From NCBI GenBank assembly GCA_964486685.1, contig CAZAOE010000003.1, forward strand, positions 5,306 through 69,305: a DNA stretch of 64,000 bases, in the 5' to 3' direction. This DNA comes from an uncultured Gammaproteobacteria bacterium. Lineage in GTDB: Bacteria; Patescibacteriota; Patescibacteriia; UBA1558; S5-K13. This document shows, piece by piece, positions 10,959-58,134 of this stretch; position 1 is the stretch's first letter, and each line of letters starts with the position of its first letter. The notes below the pieces were generated by a model. That model had not been told where the DNA came from. It ran no database searches and saw only the letters and a program-made list of their open reading frames with translations. The translations under genes were made by a program, and so were the position numbers.

Positions 10959-11054
10959 TTTATCAAGTTAATTATTGGGTCGTCCGCCTACGCATAAAGC
11001 TACGGCAGGACTGAAATAAAATTAAAATTTGATATTTAAAATTTATTTGAAATT

Positions 11055-11078
11055 CCTGCCTGCCGGCAGGCAGGTATT
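11055..11078. repeat. 24-mer CCTGCCTGCCGGCAGGCAGGTATT (20-bp perfect palindrome) in the tRNA leader
   Basis: identical 24-mer recurs at 30781-30804 upstream of ackA; variant inside porA CDS at 33325-33348. Confidence 0.8.
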
Positions 11079-11106
11079 GTTTGAAATTTGTAATTTAATA
11101 AAGCAT

Positions 11107-23940: not shown

Positions 23941-24441
23941 ATGAATTTTAAAAAAATACCAATTATATATCACATTGTTTGGGCAACTCACAGCACTAGA
24001 ATGTCAAAAAGAATGAAAAAATATAAGATAAAATTAAAAAATCCCATATACCTCGACATTAATATGAGATATGAGATTACGAAATATTTAATCAAAATTA
24101 TCAAAGAAGACAAAATTAATATATTGGCTCTCAACGTCTTACACCATCATGTACATTTAATTCTGATTTGTTTTAAATGGAAAAGAGATAATATTGTCCG
24201 CAAATTAAAAGGTAAAACAACTCAATTATATAAAAACAAACATAATATAAAAAAAGAATTCCACCTTTGGCAACAAAAATATAATCACAAAATAATAGAA
24301 TCTGAAGAGCAACTATATAACACCATAAATTATGTTAAAAATAATCATATTAAACACAACATATCTGTCCACAAGGGGTTGCAACCCCTTGTAAAAAAAG
24401 TTTTGTGTCCTGTCGAAGAAATGTATAAAAAAATAGATTAG
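23941..24441 (+). CDS. tnpA: IS200/IS605-family HUH (Y1) transposase / RAYT-like
   Basis: 166 aa; YHIVWATH N-terminal, HUH motif HHHVHLIL, catalytic-Tyr region NYVKNNH. Confidence 0.65.
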   Translation: MNFKKIPIIYHIVWATHSTRMSKRMKKYKIKLKNPIYLDINMRYEITKYLIKIIKEDKINILALNVLHHHVHLILICFKWKRDNIVRKLKGKTTQLYKNKHNIKKEFHLWQQKYNHKIIESEEQLYNTINYVKNNHIKHNISVHKGLQPLVKKVLCPVEEMYKKID

Positions 24442-24530
24442 TGTTAATTTAAAAACTAACTAACTAGACAGATATGATCAAAAACCTTGGGGTTGCAGCC
24501 CCTTGTGGAAAAAGCTCTGTGTTCTGTAAA
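24374..24530. repeat. two REP-like units: perfect palindrome ACAAGGGGTTGCAACCCCTTGT (24374-24395) and CCTTGGGGTTGCAGCCCCTTGTGG (24485-24508), each followed by AAAAAG(Y)T(Y)TGTGT(Y)CTGT
   Basis: ~45-bp direct repeat containing hairpins, at and downstream of the tnpA 3' end. Confidence 0.7.
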
Positions 24531-26017: not shown

Positions 26018-26087
26018 AAAATATGTTTCCCGCGCCCTACAAAACATTTAGCCAGAATTTAAAATAAATGCCTTTAAAGATTTTAAC

Positions 26088-26130
26088 AGCTCCCCTCCTC
26101 AGACGAGGAGGGGATTAAGGGGTGGTGTTG
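26088..26130. repeat. GC-rich palindrome GCTCCCCTCCTC-AGAC-GAGGAGGGGAT (family A-like) between the two comEC parts
   Basis: perfect 11-bp arms. Confidence 0.7.
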
Positions 26131-28314: not shown

Positions 28315-29019
28315 TTATTTGATTAGAATTATATTAATCAATATTTATAATATTCGTATTTCTGCGCCATTACAAAAATTTAGCTACAATTCGAATGACA
28401 AGTAATAGAATTTCTATGAGAAATAAGAATGACGAATATTGAAATTCATTGCTCGGAATGATGAATTGTCTAAATTTTTGTACAGGCGCGACTTTTTGGC
28501 TCCACCTTTTTCTAGAAAAAGGTGGAAAAAGAAAAAGAATATGCGAATACTTTATTAAAATATTAATACTTAACTATCTAACGAAACAATACTTAGTTAA
28601 AATCGTTATTACTTAGTTATTAATTTTAACTTCAAAACCAACCAAACTTGATACTTTTTTCTTATAAAAATAAACCCTCAGTGGGATTATTGTTTTTGTA
28701 AAACAAAAGTGCTATAATATAAACATGCCTAGAAAATCAGTATATGGAAGACTTTGATTTAACATTGGGAGTTCGGGTAATTTAAAACTGAGGTTTTAAA
28801 TTCAGAACTTAACCCACTATTATGGTTTTTGAGGCTTCCAATATCCAACTGATATTTTAGGCATTTTCAAAACTGGGCTTTCCTGCCCGGTTTTCTTTTA
28901 AACTAATTTTAAATAAACATATTTTTTGCTATAATAAAGCTAAGCAGAAAGTAAAAAAATAAGGTTTAAGGTGCTTTATGCTTTATGCTTTCTACTTTTA
29001 CCTTTTAACCATCCTTTTT

Positions 29020-30661: not shown

Positions 30662-30780
30662 TTGAATAATAGAATAATAGGTTAATAGAAAATCATCATT
30701 TTTATACTTATAAATAATAAAATTATTCGTACTATTGGTATCATTCGTATAATTTATTAGTATTATTAGTACCATTCGTA

Positions 30781-30804
30781 CCTGCCTGCCGGCAGGCAGG
30801 TATT
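30781..30804. repeat. second exact copy of CCTGCCTGCCGGCAGGCAGGTATT, ~20 nt upstream of ackA
   Basis: identical to 11055-11078. Confidence 0.8.
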
Positions 30805-30825
30805 AGCATTATAATCATTAGTATT

Positions 30826-32010
30826 ATGAGGAAGCAAAAATACATTTTAGTTTTGAACAGTGGAAGCACTTCTTTGAAGTTCAAAATTTTTAATTACTAT
30901 AGTTTAAAAGAAATTCATTGTGGAGCGATAGAAAAAATCGGATTAAAAAAATCAATTATACAATTTGATAACTCTAATATTAAAAATAGAAAAACAATAA
31001 TTAATCATTCTCAAGCCCTAAAAATAATCAATGATTTTATAAAAAACGAAACTAATATAAAAATATCTTTAATCTTGCACAGAATAGTTCATGGAGGTGT
31101 GGAATTTAATCAAGCCACAAAATTAGACCAAAAAACAATAAATAAAATAAGTAAATATAATAATTTGGCTCCCTTACATAATCCAGTAAATTTAAAAGTT
31201 GCCCAAGAGGCCTTAAAAATCTGGCCGAGGATAAAACAAATAGGAATGTTTGATACTATGTTTTTTAAAAATATTCCCCTCCCAGCATACCTTTACCCGT
31301 TACCTCTAAAATATTTCCAAAAATATAATATTAGAAAATTTGGCTTTCATGGATTTTCCCACCAAAACATGTTGAAATGGTCTGCTAAAAATTTAAAAAA
31401 AAGAATAAATCAATGTAATTTGATAACCTGTCATCTAGGTGGGGGCTCTAGTATAGCTGTTATTAAAAATGGGGAACCCATAGAAATATCAATGGGCTTT
31501 AGTCCTTCGTCAGGGTTAATGATGATGAATAGAGCTGGCGACTTAGATCCAGCCATTATTTTCCATCTTTTAAAAAATGCTAAAATGTCCCTAAATCAAA
31601 TATATCAATTATTAAATTTTGAATCTGGGTTAAGGGGCATGACAAAAATTGGAGATTTGCGTGATATTATGATTTTAGCTGGATATAAAATAAAAAATTA
31701 TTCATCACCACGCCTCGAAAAAGGTCTAGGGGGTAAATCAAACACAAAAGCAACCAAAGAGAACAAACAACTCGCAAAATTAGCTTTAGATTTGTTTATA
31801 TACAAAATTCAAAGATATTTATCATCCTATATAACTTTATTACCAAAAATTGATGCCATTGTATTTAGTGGAGCAATAGGTGAAAGAAATGCGGATATTA
31901 GAAACTTAATATTTAAAAACATATATTTTCCTAAAAAATACAAAAAAATTATAGTTAAATGTAATGAAGAAAAAATAATGGCTGAAATAATTAAAAAAAT
32001 TAATTTATAA
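30826..32010 (+). CDS. ackA: acetate kinase
   Basis: ILVLNSGSTSLKFKIF N-terminus; HLGGGSS. Confidence 0.85.
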   Translation: MRKQKYILVLNSGSTSLKFKIFNYYSLKEIHCGAIEKIGLKKSIIQFDNSNIKNRKTIINHSQALKIINDFIKNETNIKISLILHRIVHGGVEFNQATKLDQKTINKISKYNNLAPLHNPVNLKVAQEALKIWPRIKQIGMFDTMFFKNIPLPAYLYPLPLKYFQKYNIRKFGFHGFSHQNMLKWSAKNLKKRINQCNLITCHLGGGSSIAVIKNGEPIEISMGFSPSSGLMMMNRAGDLDPAIIFHLLKNAKMSLNQIYQLLNFESGLRGMTKIGDLRDIMILAGYKIKNYSSPRLEKGLGGKSNTKATKENKQLAKLALDLFIYKIQRYLSSYITLLPKIDAIVFSGAIGERNADIRNLIFKNIYFPKKYKKIIVKCNEEKIMAEIIKKINL

Positions 32011-32495: not shown

Positions 32496-33570
32496 AAATA
32501 TGCCTAAAAAAACCTTAATTACTGGAAATGAAATAGTAGTTAAATCCGCTTTGGCTGCTGGGGCCAAGGCCTATTTTGGTTATCCGATTACTCCGGCCAC
32601 AGAAATAATGACTGAGTGGGATAAAGAATATGAGCAAAGAAAAGACCTAATATTTTTACAAACCGAAGATGAAATGTCGGCTGGCTTTGCCATGATTGGC
32701 TCGGTTTTAACTGGAATAAAAACTTTTACTGCCACCTCTGGACCAGGAAATATCTTAATGCAAGATGCTTTTGCAATGGCCGAAGCCATGCGTATCCCCA
32801 CAGTAGCAATTATTGGCCAAAGAGGAGGACCATCAACTGGCTCTGTTATTTATTCCCAACAAGAATTAACCTTAACGGCTTTTGGTGGTAATGGCGAGGG
32901 CTATCGCATAGTTTATTCACCTACTAATTTACAAGAGCTTTATGACCATATTATTAAGGCCTTTAATACTGCTTGGAAATATAAATTTCCGGTCTTTGTA
33001 CTGACTGATGGCTATACTTTAAAAACTCGAGCTTTAGTAGAATTAACCAAACCAAAAAATATAGTTAAATCTTATCCTTTAGTTCTAAAATCTAAAATTA
33101 GAAATAATTCTAAAGAATCTAATTATCAAAATCTAAACAATACTTTTGCCACCGAAGAACAATGTTATCAAGCCAATATAAATCTATTAAATGCCTTTAA
33201 TAAAATTAAGGATAAAATTACTGAATCAGAAATTTATTCTTTAAGCAAAAATCCTAAAACCTTAATAATTGCTCACGGCATCGTGGCTGCTTCTGTTAAA
33301 CAAGCGATTAATGATTCTAAGAACCTTGCCTACCGGCAGGCAGGTAGAAAAGTTAAGCTCTTCCGACCAATTACTTTGAACCCTTTTCCAGATAAAAATT
33401 TAAAGAAAAATTTAAAGGGGATTAAAAAAATAATTATCGTTGAATCAGCTGCCAATCAATTATTAAAACTGGTTAAAGAAAATATTTATGGTGCTAAAAT
33501 TCCCATCCAAACTTATTGCCGACCAGGATTAGGAATTAGTCCAGAGGAGATAATAAAATTAATAAAATAA
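32488..33570 (+). CDS. porA: 2-oxoacid:ferredoxin oxidoreductase alpha subunit
   Basis: LITGNEIVVKSALAAGAKAYFGYPITPATEI; start set at MNKNMPKK preceded by AGGGGATGAG (ORF-track start 32458). Confidence 0.8.
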   Translation: MNKNMPKKTLITGNEIVVKSALAAGAKAYFGYPITPATEIMTEWDKEYEQRKDLIFLQTEDEMSAGFAMIGSVLTGIKTFTATSGPGNILMQDAFAMAEAMRIPTVAIIGQRGGPSTGSVIYSQQELTLTAFGGNGEGYRIVYSPTNLQELYDHIIKAFNTAWKYKFPVFVLTDGYTLKTRALVELTKPKNIVKSYPLVLKSKIRNNSKESNYQNLNNTFATEEQCYQANINLLNAFNKIKDKITESEIYSLSKNPKTLIIAHGIVAASVKQAINDSKNLAYRQAGRKVKLFRPITLNPFPDKNLKKNLKGIKKIIIVESAANQLLKLVKENIYGAKIPIQTYCRPGLGISPEEIIKLIK

Positions 33571-36050: not shown

Positions 36051-36249
36051 TTTTTGCTGAGTAAAAAATCACTTCTTAAATCAACATCTTTAATTTTGAA
36101 TTTTCAATTTTGAATTTTAATTAAATTCTCAATGACTTAATTTACAAACATAAATGAAAATTGAAAATTGGTTATTTACCCTGTTAAATTATTTTTCCAA
36201 AATACTATTTAACAGGGTAAAATGTAAATTGTAAATTTCAAATTGTAAA

Positions 36250-37137
36250 TTGTATATGAATATCTCTATCATCATCGTTAATTATAAAGTCAAAGACCTG
36301 CTGGACAATTGCCTCCAGTCTATTTTTAGTAATTCGGAAAATATAGAGTTGGATGTAATTGTGGTAGATAATAATTCTCAAGATGGTAGCGTAGAAATGG
36401 TTAAAAAAAAATATCCGCAAATTAATTTAATTGCTTCTCCGGAAAATCTCGGTTTTGCTAAAGCCAATAATCTTGGTTTTCAAAAAGCTAAATCCCCACA
36501 CCTTAAAAAAGGTGATGGGGATAAATATGACTATATTTTACTTTTAAATCCAGACATGAAGTTATTCCCAAATACCTTAGAAAATGCTCTAAAATGGGCA
36601 AATATGCATCCTCAAGCCCAAGTAATTGGCTGTCATCTAATAGATCAAAATAATCAAACTATTTTTCATATTCGTCAATTTCCAACTCTTTTAGATCAAT
36701 TGGCTATTATTTTAAAACTGCCCCATATTTTCCCGCAAATTCTAAATAAATACTTACGAAAAAAATTTGATTATTCTCAAGCCAGTAAGGTTGATTCTGT
36801 ACGCGGAGCATTTTTTTTAGTTCAACGCAAAACCTATGAGGGGCTTCAAGGATTAGATGAAAAATATTTTGTTTGGTTTGAAGAAGTTGATTTTTGTAAA
36901 AAAGTTTATGAGAGTGGAGGAGAGGTGTGGTATACTCCAGATGCTAAATGCATTGATTATGTTGGTAAAAGTTTCTCTCAAGTACCTCGAGGCGTAACTC
37001 AAAAATATTTTCGCGACTCTATGCTAAAATATTTTAAAAAATGGCATCCATGTTGGCAGTGGATAATTTTAAAAATAGCTTGGGTAATCGGTGCCTTGCT
37101 AGCAAAATTAAAAATTAAATCACAAATAAAAACATAA
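36250..37137 (+). CDS. family 2 glycosyltransferase
   Basis: ISIIIVNYK ... VIVVDNNSQDGS; carries in-frame palindromic element at 36492-36528. Confidence 0.8.
   Translation: MYMNISIIIVNYKVKDLLDNCLQSIFSNSENIELDVIVVDNNSQDGSVEMVKKKYPQINLIASPENLGFAKANNLGFQKAKSPHLKKGDGDKYDYILLLNPDMKLFPNTLENALKWANMHPQAQVIGCHLIDQNNQTIFHIRQFPTLLDQLAIILKLPHIFPQILNKYLRKKFDYSQASKVDSVRGAFFLVQRKTYEGLQGLDEKYFVWFEEVDFCKKVYESGGEVWYTPDAKCIDYVGKSFSQVPRGVTQKYFRDSMLKYFKKWHPCWQWIILKIAWVIGALLAKLKIKSQIKT
36492..36528. repeat. in-frame palindromic mini-element (family B) ATCCCCACACCTT-AAAAA-AGGTGATGGGGAT encoding SPHLKKGDGDK
   Basis: near-identical element at 56131-56161 inside miaA; intergenic relative at 43468-43578. Confidence 0.8.
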
Positions 37138-43388: not shown

Positions 43389-43610
43389 ATACTTTGTTAT
43401 TTAATTATCAATTTGAAATTTTCATTGAATTACAAATTACCAATTTGAAATTGAATAATTGAAAATTAACCCCATCACCTTTTTTGCAAAATAATATCAA
43501 AAAATTATTTTAAAAAAATTATATAATAAAATTAAGATATCAAATTTTAAATTAAAAGGTGAGGGGTTAAATTCAAATTAAAAATTGATCATTGGTAATT
43601 GAAATCATTT

Positions 43611-44687
43611 CTAGCTAACTATATTCAAACTATATTTACAATTCTGACATAAACCACTCTTGTCATTCCTTGTAATGATATACCCTTGTCTTTCAATATT
43701 CAAGGCCCCACACTCTGGACAATAGGTATTTTCTCTATCATCTTCCGCAATATTACCTAAATAAACATATTTTAAACCTACTTCCTTACCAATACCATAG
43801 GCCTGATCTAATTCTTTTTCTGAAGTAGCTTGCTTAGACAAAAGTTTATAAGAAATTTCTGGAGAAAATTTAGAAATATGCCAAGGTGTATCTACACCCA
43901 ATTCTTTTTTAATAAACTCAGCTATCTTCTTAATTTGTCCTTGAACATTAGTTTCTCCTGGAATAATTAGAGTAGTCACCTCTATAAAAACTTTTTTTTG
44001 TTTTAAATAAACTAAATTATTTAGAATTGGTTCTAAAGAACCTCCTGTTATTCTTTTATATTTTTTATCTAAGAAAAATTTTAAGTCCACATTAATAGCA
44101 TCTAAATAGGGGAGTATTAAATCCAAACATTTTTGACTCATAAAACCATTAGAAACCCAGACATTTTTTAATTTATGTTCATGGGCCAATTTCATAATTG
44201 GCAAAGCAGTTTCCAAAAATACTGTTGGTTCAGTATAGGTATAAGCAATGGAAAGACAATTATTATCTTTAGCTTCGGCAATGATTTCTGCGGGCTCAAT
44301 TAATTCTCCAGGAAATCTACTATCTAATTTCTCAATTTTTTGTAACTGGGAAATCTGCCAATTCTGACAATTAAGACAATGAAAATTACAGCCCATGCCA
44401 GCAATAGAATAAGTCAAACTACCTGGTAAAAAATGAAAAAAAGGTTTCTTTTCAATAGGATCAATGTTTTTAGCAATCAATTTATTATAATTTAAAGCAT
44501 ATAATTTGCCCTGAATATTTTTCCGCACCCCACAAACCCCAACATGATTTTCAGCAATACTACAAAAATGATTGCATAACTCGCAATTTACAACACCGCT
44601 AACTTTCTCCCCCTTTTTAAGAGGGAGGTGTCCGGAGGACAAAGAGGGTTTACCTTTTTTATATAATAAAGCTTCGTGCATACTCAT
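43611..44687 (-). CDS. radical SAM enzyme, AmmeMemoRadiSam-system (AmrS)/PflA-like
   Basis: CNFHCLNCQNW cluster motif; C-terminal CPECG...CQNCK zinc ribbon; N-terminus carries in-frame family-A element. Confidence 0.7.
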   Translation of the reverse strand: MSMHEALLYKKGKPSLSSGHLPLKKGEKVSGVVNCELCNHFCSIAENHVGVCGVRKNIQGKLYALNYNKLIAKNIDPIEKKPFFHFLPGSLTYSIAGMGCNFHCLNCQNWQISQLQKIEKLDSRFPGELIEPAEIIAEAKDNNCLSIAYTYTEPTVFLETALPIMKLAHEHKLKNVWVSNGFMSQKCLDLILPYLDAINVDLKFFLDKKYKRITGGSLEPILNNLVYLKQKKVFIEVTTLIIPGETNVQGQIKKIAEFIKKELGVDTPWHISKFSPEISYKLLSKQATSEKELDQAYGIGKEVGLKYVYLGNIAEDDRENTYCPECGALNIERQGYIITRNDKSGLCQNCKYSLNIVS

Positions 44688-44705: not shown

Positions 44706-44810
44706 TTAAAACTAAAAGCGCAAAATGCAAAACTAATTCCTACAAACTAATAAGCTACTCCCTACAAACCCAAAAACCTAACCCCCTACAAGCTAATAAG
44801 CTAATTCCCC
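44706..44810. repeat. longest dispersed-repeat copy (AAAGCGCAAAATGCAAAACTAATTCCTACAAACTAATAAGCTACTCCCTACAAACCC...CCCCCTACAAGCTAATAAGCTAATTCCCC)
   Basis: two tandem CTACAA..CTAATAAGCTA units; interrupted at its 3' edge by the ISL3 insertion. Confidence 0.8.
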
Positions 44811-46133
44811 GGCTCTATAATAATTAGTGTGTAAAAAAAGAAGGGTTTTAATGTAAAATTAGCATATAAACCAAGCTAAAACATTAAAACACCTTCTATG
44901 AACAAAGATATAACAAAGTTTTTTGAAATACAAGGGTATCTTGTATACAAAACTAGAATTGATAATGATCAAAACATAATAATTAGAATAGGAAGACCAA
45001 AAAACAAAAATGAGTGTCCAGATTGTAAAAGTAAAAAACATTATCTTCACAGTAAAGGAAAATGGACATTAAAAAAACATTCTAACTTTCAAGAAAAACA
45101 AATATATTTAGAAGTAAAAAGAAAAAGATACAAGTGTAAACAATGTCAAAGAGTGTTTAGTGAAAAATTACCAGATATACCTAGATATGCTAGAAAAACA
45201 AATAACTTCATTAAACAATCATTAAACTATCTGTCTAAGAATTCATTTAATGAAGTAGCTAAAGTAAATCAAATTAGTTATCCTAGTTTAAAAGATCAAC
45301 TATATAACTATGTTAATCCTTTTCAACTCTTAGAACATCAAATACAGCAATTAAATAAACTAAATGAAATATATCTTGGTTTAGACGGACAAAGTTTTAG
45401 AGGACAAAAAATGGTTCTAACCATTACAGAAGTGAAATTAAAAAAACTAATCACTATCTTACCATCAGAATCACAATCTGATTTACTGATATTTTTAAAA
45501 CAATTACCATTATCCACTAGATTAAAAGTAAAAGGTATATCGATTGATATGACTAACAAACATATTAGTTTATTAAGACAATACTTTCCTAATGCTAGAA
45601 TGGTCATAGATCATTATCATGTTGTTCAACAAGCTATATATAGATTACAAGAAGTAAGAAGAATATTACAAAGTGTAAACAGAGTTAATATACCTATTAA
45701 GAAAGAACTAGATAAAAACTATGAAAGTTTGACAAATCAAGAAAAAATAAAGATGCTTAAATATTTCATTATCTATCCAGAATTAAAAGAAGCTTACTGG
45801 TTTAAAGAAAGATTAAGATCTGTCTATCGGATTAAGAAGTATGACAAAGCTAAAAGAAGATATATAATATTAAAAAAAGAACTATTAAAACATAGTAATA
45901 ATAGTTTAAAGGAACTAGGTAAAACTTTACGTAATTGGCAAGTAGAAATACTAAATTACTTTATTACTAAAAAGATTACTAATGCTTATACGGAAGGATT
46001 ACATACTAAGTGTAAATTGATAAAAAGGAAGTCTTATGGTTTCAGAAATGTAGATACCTATGTTCGAAAGCTACTTCTTGGCTTAATACCGCTAATAACT
46101 ATACTTTCTTTACACACTATTTGACATAGAGCC
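44811..46133 (+). mobile_element. ISL3-family insertion sequence (1323 bp) with ~25-bp imperfect IRs (GGCTCTAT...AGTGTGTAAA) and 8-bp TSD AATTCCCC
   Basis: IRL 44811-44836 vs reverse complement of 46108-46133; direct repeat AATTCCCC at 44803-44810 and 46135-46142. Confidence 0.85.
44898..46124 (+). CDS. ISL3-family transposase
   Basis: N-terminal zinc ribbon CPDCKS...CKQC; DDE region with ARMVIDHYHVVQQAIYRLQEVRR typical of ISL3. Confidence 0.85.
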   Translation: MNKDITKFFEIQGYLVYKTRIDNDQNIIIRIGRPKNKNECPDCKSKKHYLHSKGKWTLKKHSNFQEKQIYLEVKRKRYKCKQCQRVFSEKLPDIPRYARKTNNFIKQSLNYLSKNSFNEVAKVNQISYPSLKDQLYNYVNPFQLLEHQIQQLNKLNEIYLGLDGQSFRGQKMVLTITEVKLKKLITILPSESQSDLLIFLKQLPLSTRLKVKGISIDMTNKHISLLRQYFPNARMVIDHYHVVQQAIYRLQEVRRILQSVNRVNIPIKKELDKNYESLTNQEKIKMLKYFIIYPELKEAYWFKERLRSVYRIKKYDKAKRRYIILKKELLKHSNNSLKELGKTLRNWQVEILNYFITKKITNAYTEGLHTKCKLIKRKSYGFRNVDTYVRKLLLGLIPLITILSLHTI

Positions 46134-46272
46134 TAATTCCCCTTGACTTCTTTCTAAATATATGTTATATTTAAATGTTAAGTAAAAAGTAAATCTATTA
46201 TTTCCAAATCCCTCAGGAAATAATAGATAAATAATGTCAACGAGGGAATAAAAAATATCCCAGGAGGATATA

Positions 46273-52291: not shown

Positions 52292-52660
52292 TCAATTTCT
52301 TCTTTTAAATTTACCTAAATCTCTCAAAAAATCTCGCAAAAACCTTATTGCCTCAGAACAATTATGATAAGAATCTTTTTGTTCTTCTTTTAAATAATTA
52401 CCTCCTATACCTATTTCTTCTCCAGTACTAACTTTTTCTCCCAACATATCATTTCCTATTTTTTCTAACTTTTCAATGTAATCATTAACCGCTCTTTCAA
52501 CTTCTGAAACCCCCACAATCTCTTCATTAAGCTTATCAATTAGTTCTTTGGCTGTTAATTCTCCATTTACAATATCATTAAGCCTACCATTAAAAATTTC
52601 TTTAATATTATCCTCTGCATGATTAATGGCTTCCATGGCCTCGGCGGGTAGTCCACACAT
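52292..52660 (-). CDS. hypothetical acidic helical protein (lone minus-strand gene)
   Basis: 122 aa; no motifs. Confidence 0.35.
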   Translation of the reverse strand: MCGLPAEAMEAINHAEDNIKEIFNGRLNDIVNGELTAKELIDKLNEEIVGVSEVERAVNDYIEKLEKIGNDMLGEKVSTGEEIGIGGNYLKEEQKDSYHNCSEAIRFLRDFLRDLGKFKRRN

Positions 52661-54264: not shown

Positions 54265-54284
54265 AATTTTTTAAAAATAAAAAG

Positions 54285-54312
54285 GGCGGATATTGATAAT
54301 CCGCCTTTTAAA
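54285..54312. terminator. bidirectional terminator GGCGGATATTGATAATCCGCC between gatB and pyrI
   Basis: perfect 7-bp stem with A-run 5' and T-run 3'. Confidence 0.7.
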
Positions 54313-55779: not shown

Positions 55780-58134
55780 TCAATTTTTTAAAAATCTCTT
55801 TACCAATTTTTCTGCTTCTTGAATATTTTTAACCCAGACAATATCTTTCCTTTTCTTAAACCAGGTTAATTGCCTTTTAGCAAAATGATGGATGTCCTTA
55901 GATAAGTTTTGAAATAATTCCTGCTCATTAATTTCTTTTTTTAGGTATTTGGCTATCCAACGATATTCTAACCCAAAATCAGCTAAACGCTTCCAAGAGA
56001 CCCCATTTTTTCGCAAATTTCGCACCTCTTGAACCATTCCTTGTTTTTCCAAACGATATTTTAACCGCTTATCAATGCATTTATAAATTATATCTTTATC
56101 CCAATACTTATTATTAAATTGTGTGGATTTATCCCCACCACCTTTCTTGAGGTGTGGGGATTTATCATGCTTTATACCTAAAATCAAAATGTCTAAATCT
56201 GGTTTTTTCTTTTTCATTTTAGTAATAGAATTACCGCTTTTAGCTATTTCAATCGCCCGGATTATTCTTCGCAAATTATTTACATCTATAGTTTTAAAAG
56301 CTTTGGGGTCTAATTTCTTCAACTTATTTTGCAATTGTTTTAAAGATAATTTATTCAACTGAGCTCTTAATTTTTTATCTATTTTTATATCTTCTAAAAC
56401 ATAACCATCAATAATTGAATTCAAATACAAACCTGTCCCGCCAACTAAAATTGGTAATTTACCTTGCTGATTTAATTCTTCAATCTTTTCAAAAGCTAAT
56501 TTTTGCCAATCTTTTAAAGTAATTTGCTCTTTAGGATTAGCAATATCTATCAAATGATAAGAAATGCCTTTGTAATCTCCCAAATCCTTACCAGTCCCAA
56601 TATCCATTCCTTTATAAACTTGCCGTGAATCAGCTGAAATTATTTCTCCTTTAAACTTCTTAGCTAAATCAACTCCAATTTTTGTTTTTCCACAAGCAGT
56701 GGGACCGAGGACTACTACTAATTTATTTCTAACTTTCTCAGCTTCCATACTCCAATTCAAGGCACCAGTAATCTTAACATTAATAAATTTACCCAGCACC
56801 TTTTTATCCAAAATGGTGCTGGGTTTACCCAAATCTTCTTTTTGAACATTTTTAACTCTTACCGTCTCATTATTTTTCATTTTAGCCACAGCAATATTAC
56901 TCTTAACGCTTTGCACTAAAACTCTCTCTGTACTTCCAACAAATTTCTTGTTTTTCTGAGCTGATATTTGAGCAACTGCTTTAGTAACTTCTTCATCCCG
57001 AGCTCTTTTTTCTTTTTGAGTAATTTCATCTTCATAAATCTTAGCTGATACTGCACCTGGACGAGGAGAGTAGAGTCCAGTAAAAATTGAAGTAAATTTA
57101 CATTTTTTCACAGCTCGTAAAGAATCTTGAAAATCTTTTTTAGTTTCCTTTGGAAAACCAAGAATAATATCAGTAGTTAAATTAGCTTCTGGAATATATT
57201 TATAAATCTGCTCAACTATCTTATAAAACTGTTTCAGATCATATTTCCGATTCATTAATTTCAAAATTTTGTCACTTCCGGATTGTAATGGTAAATGGAT
57301 ATGCTTGGAAATATTATCATATTTAGCAATAACTTTAATTAATTTTAAATCAAATTTACTTGGATAAGGAGAAAGAAAACTAATCCAAGTATTTGGTTTT
57401 AAAATTGCTACTTGTTCTAATAAATCCGCGAAGTCCCGAACTTGCCTGCCCTGTCTTGGACCTCGACTGTGATGGAGAGGAGTTTGTCGAAGGGGTTGAT
57501 GGGCGAAGTCCCAAGCCTGTCGAGGGGCGAAGTCTTTAATCTTTGATTTCTGATCAGAATTAAGATAAGAATTAACGGTTTGACCTAATAAAATAATTTT
57601 TTTAACTTCATCACTCAAATTTTTCACTTCTTTTAATATTTTCTGAACTGAACGATTCACTTCTCGACCGCGAGTATAGGGCACAGCACAATAAGTACAA
57701 AATTGATTACAGCCATTGGATATAGGGATTAAGGCCTCAAAACTATTTTCTGCTTTAGAATTTACTTCCAAATATAAATTATTTTCCGGACAATATTGAT
57801 AATGCTTTTTATGGGCCTCAATTAAGTTTGGCAATTCTTTAATTTTAGTAATATCAATAATAATATCAAACCTATCTTGTAATTTTTTAAAATCAGTAGC
57901 CAAAACACAGCCACTTAAAATTTTAATTACCCCTTTCTTTAATTTCTTTTTATGAAAAACTCCGTAAGCTCGATCAATTGCACTTTGACGAACACTACAA
58001 GAAAGGATAGCTATAATATCTGCTTTTTCCATTTGTTCTACTTTTTCAAATCCAACTGTATCAAAAACAGTAGCCAATTTCTCTGCATCAGCTTGATTCA
58101 TCGCACAACCGAAATATCTTAAGTAGTATCTCAT
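55780..58134 (-). CDS. miaB-miaA: fusion protein: MiaB-like methylthiotransferase fused to MiaA tRNA dimethylallyltransferase
   Basis: 784 aa; N-terminal MTTase domain (YFGCAMNQ), radical SAM CNQFCTYC, then P-loop VVLGPTACGKT...ADSRQVYKGMDIGT of MiaA; two in-frame GC-rich insertions. Confidence 0.8.
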   Translation of the reverse strand: MRYYLRYFGCAMNQADAEKLATVFDTVGFEKVEQMEKADIIAILSCSVRQSAIDRAYGVFHKKKLKKGVIKILSGCVLATDFKKLQDRFDIIIDITKIKELPNLIEAHKKHYQYCPENNLYLEVNSKAENSFEALIPISNGCNQFCTYCAVPYTRGREVNRSVQKILKEVKNLSDEVKKIILLGQTVNSYLNSDQKSKIKDFAPRQAWDFAHQPLRQTPLHHSRGPRQGRQVRDFADLLEQVAILKPNTWISFLSPYPSKFDLKLIKVIAKYDNISKHIHLPLQSGSDKILKLMNRKYDLKQFYKIVEQIYKYIPEANLTTDIILGFPKETKKDFQDSLRAVKKCKFTSIFTGLYSPRPGAVSAKIYEDEITQKEKRARDEEVTKAVAQISAQKNKKFVGSTERVLVQSVKSNIAVAKMKNNETVRVKNVQKEDLGKPSTILDKKVLGKFINVKITGALNWSMEAEKVRNKLVVVLGPTACGKTKIGVDLAKKFKGEIISADSRQVYKGMDIGTGKDLGDYKGISYHLIDIANPKEQITLKDWQKLAFEKIEELNQQGKLPILVGGTGLYLNSIIDGYVLEDIKIDKKLRAQLNKLSLKQLQNKLKKLDPKAFKTIDVNNLRRIIRAIEIAKSGNSITKMKKKKPDLDILILGIKHDKSPHLKKGGGDKSTQFNNKYWDKDIIYKCIDKRLKYRLEKQGMVQEVRNLRKNGVSWKRLADFGLEYRWIAKYLKKEINEQELFQNLSKDIHHFAKRQLTWFKKRKDIVWVKNIQEAEKLVKRFLKN
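56131..56161. repeat. in-frame palindromic mini-element (family B) ATCCCCACCACCTT-TCTTG-AGGTGTGGGGAT inside miaA, encoding SPHLKKGGGDK
   Basis: sister copy of 36492-36528. Confidence 0.8.
57426..57536. repeat. GC-rich ~110-bp in-frame insertion in miaB with triple GCGAAGTC(C) direct repeat and CCCCTCGACAGGCTT motif
   Basis: ~55% GC versus ~30% genome; inserted between conserved NVNxY and FADLL segments; related CCCCTCGACAAGCTC tandem at window positions 25-59. Confidence 0.75.

Follow-up and report, generated by a model that had tools for sequence, protein, structure and literature searches.

Short TAAA-flanked hairpins inserted in frame in protein-coding genes of a Patescibacteria-like bacterium

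The stretch of contig CAZAOE010000003.1 analysed here (64,000 nt, ~30% G+C; hereafter the window, to which coordinates refer) carries a family of short GC-rich palindromes, here called TAAA hairpins, which sit in frame within unrelated protein-coding genes and, in longer forms, between genes. The analysis shows that these segments are insertions: they are multi-copy in unrelated genes, bordered by a duplicated TAAA, patchily distributed, located in loops and subject to decay. That they are mobile insertions is very likely, and the observations as a whole are probably best explained by a lineage-restricted, non-autonomous mobile hairpin of a Parcubacteria-like bacterium of the candidate phyla radiation (CPR), the host being called Patescibacteria-like from the names of homologues. 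The first-pass annotation of this DNA had read the element largely correctly, as a palindrome inserted in frame, but it had overlooked the TAAA duplication, the tandem and decayed copies, the long form at 80-179 and a Y1 gene resembling those of REP-associated tyrosine transposases (RAYT; REP, repetitive extragenic palindrome).

In-frame insertions between TAAA repeats

Two intact copies, one in the gene of a family-2 glycosyltransferase (GT2) and one in the MiaA half of a MiaB-MiaA fusion gene (Table 1), consist of a 29-nt imperfect palindrome, TCCCCACACCT-loop-AGGTGNNGGGGA, between flanking direct TAAA repeats. The GT2 copy is TAAA-TCCCCACACCTTAAAAAAGGTGATGGGGA-TAAA and encodes K-SPHLKKGDGD-K (translation KSPHLKKGDGDK); the miaA copy, read on the coding (-) strand, is TAAA-TCCCCACACCTCAAGAAAGGTGGTGGGGA-TAAA and encodes K-SPHLKKGGGD-K (translation KSPHLKKGGGDK). 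They agree in orientation and frame, both reading KSPHLKKG(D/G)GDK, and are in sequence as the first-pass annotation had described them. With up to 3 mismatches allowed, the 37-mer occurs at 2 sites in the window and at none in 100 dinucleotide-preserving shuffles. Folded as DNA, the two copies reach -12.4 and -10.5 kcal/mol (z = -6.0 and -4.8, respectively). The likely start codon of the GT2 gene is the ATG at 36256. As for the second host gene, more than 100 Patescibacteria homologues share its single open reading frame (ORF) architecture (PF00919 + PF04055 + PF01715), and the fusion thus characterises the clade rather than being a local artefact. At least five independent assemblies (ENA ERZ27248885 and ERZ27248937; JGI 3300028167 and 3300028299; Logan SRR8437279) supplied contigs that are 100% identical to the window across their overlaps, three of them spanning the miaA copies and one the GT2 copy, and the inserts are therefore not an assembly artefact.

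Orthologues lack the inserted segments, as the first-pass annotation had supposed of true insertions, and DNA alignments display clean 33-nt gains. SPHLKKGDGDK is missing from all 23 GT2 orthologues, the closest of which (56-80% identity, from Patescibacteria/Parcubacteria metagenome bins) count 282 residues versus 293 in the window, and the 22-aa block HDKSPHLKKGGGDKSTQFNNKY is missing from all 18 aligned MiaB-MiaA orthologues. At the GT2 site, the syntenic relative L002/L003 (77% protein and ~82% DNA identity) has a clean 33-nt gap with ...AAA/TTT... as its empty site. The corresponding site of the window, rebuilt from the flanks, is GCT AAA TAT, and the empty allele of L047 is GCT AAA TTT; in miaA, the empty alleles of L044, L045 and L046 read GAT AAA GAx with a single TAAA. 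Six sites in all were set against empty alleles at the codon level. A single TAAA is found in the empty alleles for GT2 (window and L012), the miaA tandem, the miaA variant and an ORF of L044; the insertion site of L045 sits in TAAATAAA, and the empty site of the acetate kinase gene (ackA) is CAAA. No fragment of the element is left in any empty allele compared. Most empty alleles thus hold one TAAA and filled alleles two, a pattern to which an element-borne TAAA would look identical. Since each event adds a 29-nt palindrome plus a second TAAA, that is 33 nt (32 + 4 = 36 nt in a variant), the frame is always kept.

The comparison at the codon level also resolves the 22-aa block of MiaA into two 33-nt units sharing the middle TAAA. 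The earlier estimate of about 11 added residues per gene consequently holds for GT2 but not for miaA, where two tandem units add 22. The second, AT-decayed unit matches the intact one at 20 of 33 positions, has lost the hairpin (-2.1 kcal/mol) and scores 30.8 bits with a covariance model of the family, though as a member of its training set. Decay is also seen in ackA, where the left TAAA is mutated and 25 of 33 positions match the miaA unit; this copy has no counterpart in the L002 orthologue (86% identical), and its covariance-model score of 44.8 bits again comes from a member of the training set. In the MiaB-MiaA linker, a copy of a variant subfamily folds at -14.4 kcal/mol. It recurs in the orthologue P0122/L046 alone and is absent from L044, L045, L051 and L052 (empty site GGT AAA TTT); because it is shared with P0122/L046, it is taken to be older than the other miaA copies.

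Between genes, the window holds two long forms. One of them had been placed near 43468-43578 by the first-pass annotation as a third, intergenic relative; this element is real, occupies 43470-43566 and is flanked by TTAA, and the matching intergenic space spans only ~40 nt in the relative L002. The total comes to 7 family copies per 64 kb. In a count of GC-rich-armed hairpins bordered by TAAA, the window yields 5 and 30 Markov controls yield 0.33 on average; the hairpin at 54278-54312, between convergent genes, is among the 5 but unrelated. When the covariance model, built from 8 copies, was run on the window, it returned no further convincing copies, the best new matches having E >= 0.18 and being unlike members on inspection, and no Rfam family matches at the elements. 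The hairpin at 28502-28525, which had been suggested as a degenerate member, was rejected: it has neither CCCC/GGGG termini nor TAAA flanks, and the covariance model gives no match there at E<10. It sits in a 390-nt intergenic stretch specific to the window.

The share of the family in protein length differences was assessed from an unbiased listing of all orthologous protein pairs between the window and three relatives (L002/L044, L045 and L046), in which 7 of the 14 in-frame indels of at least 5 aa belong to the TAAA hairpins. The wider proposal that all in-frame indels are hairpins was dropped, as the indels are GC-rich (37-63% vs ~30%) yet only some of them fold better than shuffled sequences.

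Related sequence, of which ~230 kb was examined, extends the family to further organisms and genes. A strict pattern search gave 7 matches among 185,579 species-representative genomes, with a single true relative (L004), which is also the sole AT-rich genome among them. In JGI metagenomes, the same pattern gave 33 matches, most of them in unrelated GC-richer contigs, and every one of those in AT-rich contigs lies in frame within a gene. L002/L044 and L046 contain long forms of 69-110 nt that are intergenic and TAAA-flanked, and L002 has two identical 70-nt units 10 nt apart. The family now counts 11 intragenic in-frame copies at 10 sites in 7 genes (GT2, ackA, miaB-miaA, a KsgA-like gene and the genes of a 355-aa membrane protein, a 235-aa ORF and a 134-aa ORF), together with 6 intergenic long forms. 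Further copies, on which the insertion reading of the first-pass annotation had depended, therefore exist: the window and related contigs both have them, in frame and in other genes. The relatives L051-L053 (65 kb from two lineages) contain no copies, and this absence, together with the presence in the lineages of the window and of L002, makes the distribution patchy and lineage-restricted, as expected of mobile DNA. A scan of viral contigs for both subfamilies returned nothing relevant, and a concatenated peptide query in a word-index search of a 5.8-billion-protein collection returned no matches.

Several features point to recent activity. The GT2 protein of L012, filled at the same site as in the window, is 95% identical to that of P0014/L047, whose site is empty, and only 75% identical to that of the window, whose closest GT2 relatives (~80%) are also empty. 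Between the window and L012 copies, 3 of 29 positions differ; these lie in the loop or bulge, the 22 stem positions being unchanged, and the flanking gene DNA is 78-84% identical. From this lack of stem differences, we infer that neutral shared ancestry is unlikely (~0.8^22 = 0.007). The identity of the stems is likely to reflect recent gains that were independent, a transfer, or a constraint acting on the stem. Tandem arrays, with a shared TAAA in miaA and paired units in L002, are further signs of recent activity. A caveat comes from the L012 and L047 sequences, whose identity is 99-100% on the 3' side of the element but 86-92% directly 5' of it, a step that places the element either on a recombination breakpoint or on a strain-chimeric join. 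The Logan contigs L048, L001 and L058 end in GC-rich or palindromic repeat families (2462, 36195, 43495 and 57453), L001 ending inside the long form 43470-43566, at 43495; such ends inside repeats are independent evidence of multi-copy sequences in the genome.

Table 1. Copies of the TAAA hairpin in the window and in related sequences, with host genes and a candidate enzyme
Feature	Window position or related sequence	Strand	Details
Intact short element, GT2 gene	36489..36525	+	Palindrome 36493-36521; TAAA at 36489-36492 and 36522-36525
Host gene 1, family-2 glycosyltransferase, 293 aa	36250..37137	+	Pfam PF00535/PF13641 on homologues
Intact short element, MiaA half of MiaB-MiaA fusion	56128..56164	-	Palindrome 56132-56160; TAAA both sides, coding strand
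AT-decayed second tandem unit, miaA	56095..56131	-	TCCACACAATTTAATAATAAGTATTGGGA + TAAA; middle TAAA shared with intact copy; encodes STQFNNKYWDK
Variant subfamily copy, MiaB-MiaA linker	56788..56827	-	TAAA-CCCAGCACCATTTTGGATAAAAAGGTGCTGGG-TAAA; 32 + 4 = 36 nt; encodes (K)PSTILDKKVLGK
Host gene 2, MiaB-MiaA fusion (radical-SAM methylthiotransferase + tRNA isopentenyltransferase), 784 aa	55780..58134	-	PF00919, PF04055, PF01715 on homologues
Decayed copy, acetate kinase (ackA)	31701..31737	+	TTCA-TCACCACGCCTCGAAAAAGGTCTAGGGGG-TAAA; 33-nt gain; encodes SSPRLEKGLGG(K)
Intergenic long form, 100 nt at 80-179	76..183	-	Termini CCCCCCACCTTTTT...AAAAAGGTGTTGGGG; AT-rich interior; TAAA flanks on - strand (TTTA on +)
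Intergenic long form, 97 nt at 43470-43566	43466..43570	.	CCCCATCACCTTTTTTG...AAAAGGTGAGGGG; TTAA direct repeats flanking
Candidate trans-acting enzyme, 166-aa Y1/HUH transposase, nearer RAYT than IS200	23941..24441	+	HUH motif HVH, tyrosine motif NYVKNN
Copy in 355-aa membrane protein	L004		In frame; ...VINPHTSEKVEGINQ...
Copy in GT2 orthologue	L012 (746-782)		In frame; filled at the GT2 site of the window
Copy in 235-aa ORF	L014/L039		In frame; NLSPHLKKGDGDK
Copy in KsgA-like methyltransferase	L037		In frame; VNPHTSKEVSGIN
Copy at a different MiaA site (INPSPFFKKGVG)	L045		TAAA-TCCCTCACCTTTTTTTAAAAAAGGTGTAGGGA-TAAA
Copy of variant unit in 134-aa ORF	L044		Window orthologue 52292-52660 without variant unit

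Rules of the family and its effect on host proteins

The unit is a 29-nt (in a variant 32-nt) GC-rich imperfect palindrome whose stem of 11 bp carries one extra base on the 3' arm and encloses a loop of 4-6 nt. Short and long forms alike have arms of 11-16 nt, CCCC(N)CACCT.../...AGGTG(N)GGGG, as terminal inverted repeats. Of 17 copies, 14 have TAAA as their target; the remaining three are one with TTAA, the ackA copy with its mutated flank and L014 (TTTA/CAAA). Copies of 29 nt are free of stop codons in both sense frames open to a coding TAAA (xxT AAA and xTA AAx). Some variants have a stop in one sense frame, and the L045 copy is open only in the frame it occupies; the long forms, including both of those in the window, have stops in all six frames and are all intergenic. 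The encoded peptide, rich in Pro, Gly and Lys, is 11-12 residues long and reads K-SPHLKKGGGD-K or I/V-N-PHTSEKVEG-I-N.

Orientation follows equally simple rules. TAAA lies on the coding strand in 10/10 intragenic copies with at least one intact TAAA flank. As the coding strands of the window offer 1,092 TAAA and 999 TTTA sites (867 of the latter staying open), a sense fraction of 0.557 is expected, and the probability of 10/10 is therefore ~0.003 (0.557^10). All nine short copies of the TCCCC type share one polarity, their spacers measuring 1 nt in the 5' arm and 2 nt in the 3' arm. Among the long forms, that of L044 agrees with the short copies, the tandem forms of L002 are reversed and two are symmetric. 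Two independent variant copies in unrelated genes have empty alleles that share 17 identical nt, AGATTTAGGTAAATTTA. Judging from these flanks, the target of at least one subfamily appears to be longer, at ~17 nt (candidate flank AGATTTAGGTAAA followed by TTTA). In the main subfamily, the sequence common to seven target sites is TAAA alone.

In the AlphaFold model of GT2 (mean predicted local distance difference test, pLDDT, 84; predicted template-modelling score, pTM, 0.82), pLDDT drops below 50 only at residues 84-88, inside the insert, which is placed between helix 67-79 and strand 93-97. The MiaB-MiaA model (mean pLDDT 87, pTM 0.77) falls below 50 only at residues 197-228, 437-444 and 659-676, which correspond to an unrelated 33-aa GC-rich insert of MiaB, the variant copy and the tandem pair, respectively. 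The inserts are predicted by these models to be loops between conserved secondary-structure elements, the low pLDDT being in part a consequence of alignment columns that are empty at the inserts. The supposition of the first-pass annotation that the sites fall in surface loops is borne out to the extent that both models place them in loops between such elements.

Candidate mechanism, alternative explanations and other repeats

How the hairpin moves is less certain than that it moves, and we tentatively favour a Y1 single-strand mechanism. In this model, a Y1/HUH transposase of the IS200/IS605-RAYT type (IS, insertion sequence) would move the element in the form of a hairpin of single-stranded DNA. 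Cleavage would take place after TAAA at both sides, and the hairpin plus TAAA would be pasted 3' of a target TAAA; the unit would thus enter at 5'-TAAA-3' and end between two TAAA, the second one being element-borne, and its excision would be seamless. In the favoured explanation of the family, whatever the mechanism, copies persist only where the peptide meets a tolerant surface loop, and AT-biased mutation then turns them into ordinary loop sequence, as is seen in ackA and in the second miaA unit.

Such a mechanism is favoured because a 29-nt unit is a natural hairpin substrate and would be an implausibly short duplex transposon, because polarity relative to TAAA is fixed, and because the sense strand is the lagging-strand template for genes co-oriented with replication. 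It is also favoured by empty alleles that hold no element fragment and by the RAYT-like gene of the window, 12 kb from the GT2 copy. Two further pointers are that the element consists of one bulged hairpin as large as a REP and that TAAA is on the sense strand in every one of the ten informative intragenic copies. Transposases are encoded twice in the window, by this gene and by an ISL3-family element. The protein encoded at 23941-24441 matches Pfam Y1_Tnp above the cutoff (E = 4.6e-9); its best NCBIfam match, REP_Tyr_transpos, has E = 1e-10 and 41.6 bits, under the cutoff of 80. It has distant matches in the PDB to IS200-like transposases and occurs in one genomic context in 13 contigs. Two GGGGTTGCA[AG]CCCC hairpin units lie 3' of the gene, one in frame within its 3' end and the other downstream. 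The gene is single-copy and its C-terminus carries an in-frame perfect 22-nt palindrome (ACAAGGGGTTGCAACCCCTTGT), a unit of ~45 nt being repeated downstream (23941-24517). Two independent short-read contigs stop at 24475, just before the second of these units, which suggests that the ~45-nt unit recurs elsewhere in the genome.

Several points weigh against the Y1 mechanism. The hairpins adjacent to the Y1 gene are of another sequence (GGGGTTGCAACCCC), no TAAA-type element lies beside the gene, and the link between family and enzyme is only a candidate one; the protein also falls below the NCBIfam cutoffs for both RAYT and IS200. The tandem long forms of L002 have the opposite arm asymmetry, which would better fit an orientation-free insertion by a DDE transposase, and the long form 76-183 has its TAAA on the strand opposite the neighbouring gene. 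The sense-strand bias could result from selection on the peptide; the antisense frames give FIPITFFKVWGF or LSPSPFLRCGDL, and all 29-nt copies could have descended from one master. Moreover, GC skew in the window tracks gene orientation, so that the directions of replication and of genes are inseparable.

We consider it rather unlikely that the hairpins are classical MITEs (miniature transposable elements with inverted repeats), which would move as double-stranded DNA, by cut-and-paste or copy-in via their terminal inverted repeats, through a DDE transposase whose gene lies elsewhere, TAAA undergoing a true 4-bp duplication and short forms arising as internal deletions of long forms of 70-110 nt. 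The identical direct repeats at elements and the single copy at empty sites fit such a process, as do the inverted termini of 12-16 nt shared between short and long forms, and the long forms of L002 and L044:6204 appear inverted relative to each other with respect to TAAA. The split between short intragenic and long intergenic forms, in turn, parallels the 107-bp and 155-bp Correia elements (PMC2229807). However, the only DDE transposase in the window belongs to an ISL3 element, which was rejected as a partner: its ends (GGCTCTAT) and its 8-9-bp duplication (TAATTCCCC) are both unlike those of the family. A transposase synapse is also unlikely on a 29-bp duplex with 4-6 bp between 12-bp ends. 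The single polarity in 9/9 copies and the sense TAAA in 10/10 would both need selection, and six 29-nt copies with near-identical loops suggest that the 29-mer itself propagates. The ISL3-family element is complete (44811-46133, transposase 44898-46124) and absent from L002/L044, which have two tandem TAAA-hairpin long forms instead at this intergenic space (44802-46142).

A spread without any transposase appears improbable. Replication stalled at the hairpin would lead to template switching or ectopic gene conversion via short homology (TAAA or longer), and the copies would pass between related genomes when the host gene undergoes ordinary homologous recombination. Deletion and slippage are known to occur at palindromes between direct repeats. 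The 17 nt shared by the empty alleles of the variant copies in unrelated genes (AGATTTAGGTAAATTTA) would provide such homology, the same GT2 site is filled in lineages with only 75% protein identity, and the breakpoint of the L012/L047 mosaic falls exactly at the element. The mosaic may, on the other hand, be a strain-chimeric metagenome assembly, and the seven sites of the main subfamily share only TAAA, a homology of a size that occurs ~2,500 times in 64 kb and could not by itself pick this donor.

Still weaker, and in our opinion very improbable, is the proposal that the segments are ancestral loops lost repeatedly or a functional DNA or RNA motif recruited independently. Stems that are conserved among copies with variable loops, and a similar peptide in different proteins, might be read in this way, but the segments are missing from every orthologue, including the closest (80% and 95% identity), and the stems show no difference at 22 positions where neutral shared ancestry at ~80% predicts 4-5. 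Other copies (ackA, second miaA unit) decay freely, and positions follow no logic, being loops of unrelated enzymes and intergenic spacers. No T-tract follows the stem, the terminator scan does not flag it and no Rfam family covers it. An intrinsic terminator was in particular rejected, as the stem is followed by TAAA, lies inside ORFs and leaves the terminator scan silent. Lastly, the chance of an assembly or sequencing artefact, such as chimeric joins at short repeats, is negligible: short-read contigs do break at other repeat families (2462, 24475, 36195, 43495 and 57453) and L012/L047 may be a strain mosaic, but the independent assemblies agree fully in their overlaps, the inserts are exact multiples of three that leave long ORFs open, and the family recurs in different organisms and genes.

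Besides the TAAA hairpins, the window contains other GC-rich inserts and repeats. The MiaB half of the fusion carries at 57436-57534 (-) a 99-nt in-frame insert of 60% G+C, which encodes DFAPRQAWDFAHQPLRQTPLHHSRGPRQGRQVR with three direct GACTTCGC(C/G) repeats and forms no hairpin (z = 0.7). Orthologues have a shorter (DFAPxQVRDFADL) or a different (PVKSCGAGISPSVKLFNRV) insert at this site, which, from these sequences, looks like a hotspot for other insert families; the Logan contig L058 starts inside the insert, at 57453. A second palindrome family, (TA)CCTGCCTGCCGGCAGGCAGG(TA), is found at 11054-11085, 30767-30811 and 33325-33345. Two of these copies are intergenic and one, missing in L002, adds 21 nt (LAYRQAG) in frame to the alpha subunit of pyruvate:ferredoxin oxidoreductase. 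A third GC-rich repeat family, CTCCCCCT..AGGGGGAGGTGTC.CGGAG.GACA.AGAGGGGGTT, occurs at 1403-1461 and 44609-44651 and also at 2413-2552 and 26083-26128; at 44609-44651, the repeat extends into the 5' end of a radical-SAM ORF, which thereby gains LSSGHL in frame compared with L002. Upstream of the GT2 gene, a palindrome at 36158-36238 (TTTACCCTGTTAAAT...ATTTAACAGGGTAAA) resembles a 60-nt in-frame insert in the MiaB of L044 (CCTGTTAAATT...TTATTTAACAGG, encoding PVKFCGAGISPSVKLFNR), and the two may represent a fourth family with intergenic and in-frame copies. Finally, the intergenic stretch between NDK and PfkB (~28690-28940) is ~93% identical to L002, against an average of ~82% for aligned DNA. 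Its -10-like box (TGCTATAAT), terminator-like end (CTGGGCTTTCCTGCCCGGTTTT) and pairing over a long range (GCCTAGAAAATCAG...CTGATATTTTAGGC) make the stretch a candidate for an unannotated small RNA; a comparison with Rfam was negative both at the gathering threshold and at E<1.

Relation to known elements and significance

The closest behavioural parallel is provided by the Rickettsia palindromic elements (RPEs), to which the first-pass annotation had compared the palindrome. RPE-1 to RPE-10 (Ogata et al. 2000, 2002) are given as 105-146 bp long and in frame in 19 genes (PMC2229807, PMC10969869), and their target-site duplication is listed as '?' (PMC2229807). RPEs and TAAA hairpins are both multi-copy palindromes that code for no transposase, lie between genes as well as in frame within housekeeping genes of a small AT-rich genome, encode a conserved peptide at tolerated protein positions and decay over time. 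The analogy accordingly stands for behaviour (palindromic, multi-copy, in frame, in loops) but not for membership, given the differences in length, sequence and TAAA duplication. At 29-32 nt (33-36 nt if the repeat is counted), TAAA hairpins are about four times shorter, and they come with a defined duplication, that of TAAA; in sequence, they are unrelated. They reside in Patescibacteria, whereas RPEs reside in Alphaproteobacteria, and have long forms of 69-110 nt with unrelated AT-rich interiors; their frame neutrality is, unlike that of RPEs, a matter of the arithmetic of element plus repeat length. Length and taxon by themselves place the TAAA hairpins outside the RPEs.

REPs are extragenic and carry GTAG or CGTC tags (PMC3733652). 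Like the REP/REPIN-RAYT systems, TAAA hairpins are dispersed, GC-rich, bulged imperfect palindromes of 20-40 nt with a tetranucleotide beside the stem, and their long two-armed forms recall REPINs. The window also has a RAYT-like Y1 gene flanked by GC-rich hairpins, though these are of a different family than the TAAA hairpins. In contrast to REPs, which have no flanking duplication, TAAA hairpins are mostly intragenic (all short copies are) and have TAAA on both sides. With IS200/IS605 elements and palindrome-associated transposable elements (PATEs), they would share hairpin recognition, a fixed orientation 3' of a tetra- or pentanucleotide, seamless excision and strand bias, a likeness that is partly inferred. 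IS200/IS605 elements, however, are hundreds of nt long and have two different subterminal hairpins with distinct cleavage sites, whereas a single TAAA hairpin would have to form both ends, its two cleavage sites being TAAA alike.

Correia/NEMIS, RUP and ERIC resemble TAAA hairpins in their terminal inverted repeats, AT-rich duplicated target and lack of a transposase gene. Correia-type MITEs also have stop-free short forms tolerated in genes and stop-containing long forms that are intergenic (PMC2229807). Bacterial MITEs are nevertheless ~100-200 bp or longer, usually AT-rich and flanked by TA duplications, compared with a GC-rich unit of 29 nt and TAAA here. Several of them have a matching IS (IS630-Spn1 for RUP), and none in the window matches the TAAA hairpins. 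Another parallel is found in the GC clusters of yeast mitochondria (GC42; PMC4478555). These are GC-rich hairpins of ~30-50 nt that, in the same way, proliferate in an AT-rich genome, and both have short direct repeats, single or tandem units, conserved stems, variable loops, rapid turnover and no identified transposase (PMC4478555). The yeast clusters are mitochondrial, flanked by AG or ACT, mostly intergenic and unrelated in sequence to TAAA hairpins (PMC4478555). TAAA hairpins thus belong to none of the RPE, REP, MITE (Correia) and yeast GC-cluster families. In the literature on palindromic, MITE or RPE elements in CPR/Patescibacteria, no report of in-frame elements was found.

The TAAA hairpin is a protein-coding selfish palindrome, notable for its small size, its TAAA rule, its frame neutrality and the phylum of its host. 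Going further, it could represent an undescribed class of bacterial mobile DNA, namely a coding-adapted, single-stranded hairpin moved by a Y1/HUH enzyme, with at least one subfamily directed to a ~17-nt target, a reading that we regard as possible but doubtful. If true, the 29-nt unit would be among the smallest transposable units known. Its adaptation to coding sequence would consist of a length in multiples of three, stop-free sense frames, a flexible Pro/Gly/Lys loop and exclusively sense insertion. TAAA hairpins, together with the other GC-rich insert families, would then account for the chief protein length variation in the lineage.

Selfish palindromes that code for protein have hitherto been regarded as peculiar to Rickettsia and some few further endosymbionts. 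That a free-standing, episymbiotic CPR lineage harbours an element unrelated to theirs and much smaller suggests that such palindromes recur in small, AT-rich genomes poor in intergenic DNA. In practical terms, the inserts explain low-complexity peptides of the "KSPHLKKGGGDK" type and length heterogeneity in CPR proteins, and can serve as sensitive markers of strains. In metagenome assemblies, they fall at contig breaks and at possible points of recombination or chimerism. Finally, the simplicity of the rules (a tetranucleotide target, a 29-nt unit, obligatory frame preservation and stages of decay) makes the family a tractable system, which serves two questions: how new loop sequence enters conserved enzymes and what is the minimal substrate of a hairpin-dependent transposase.

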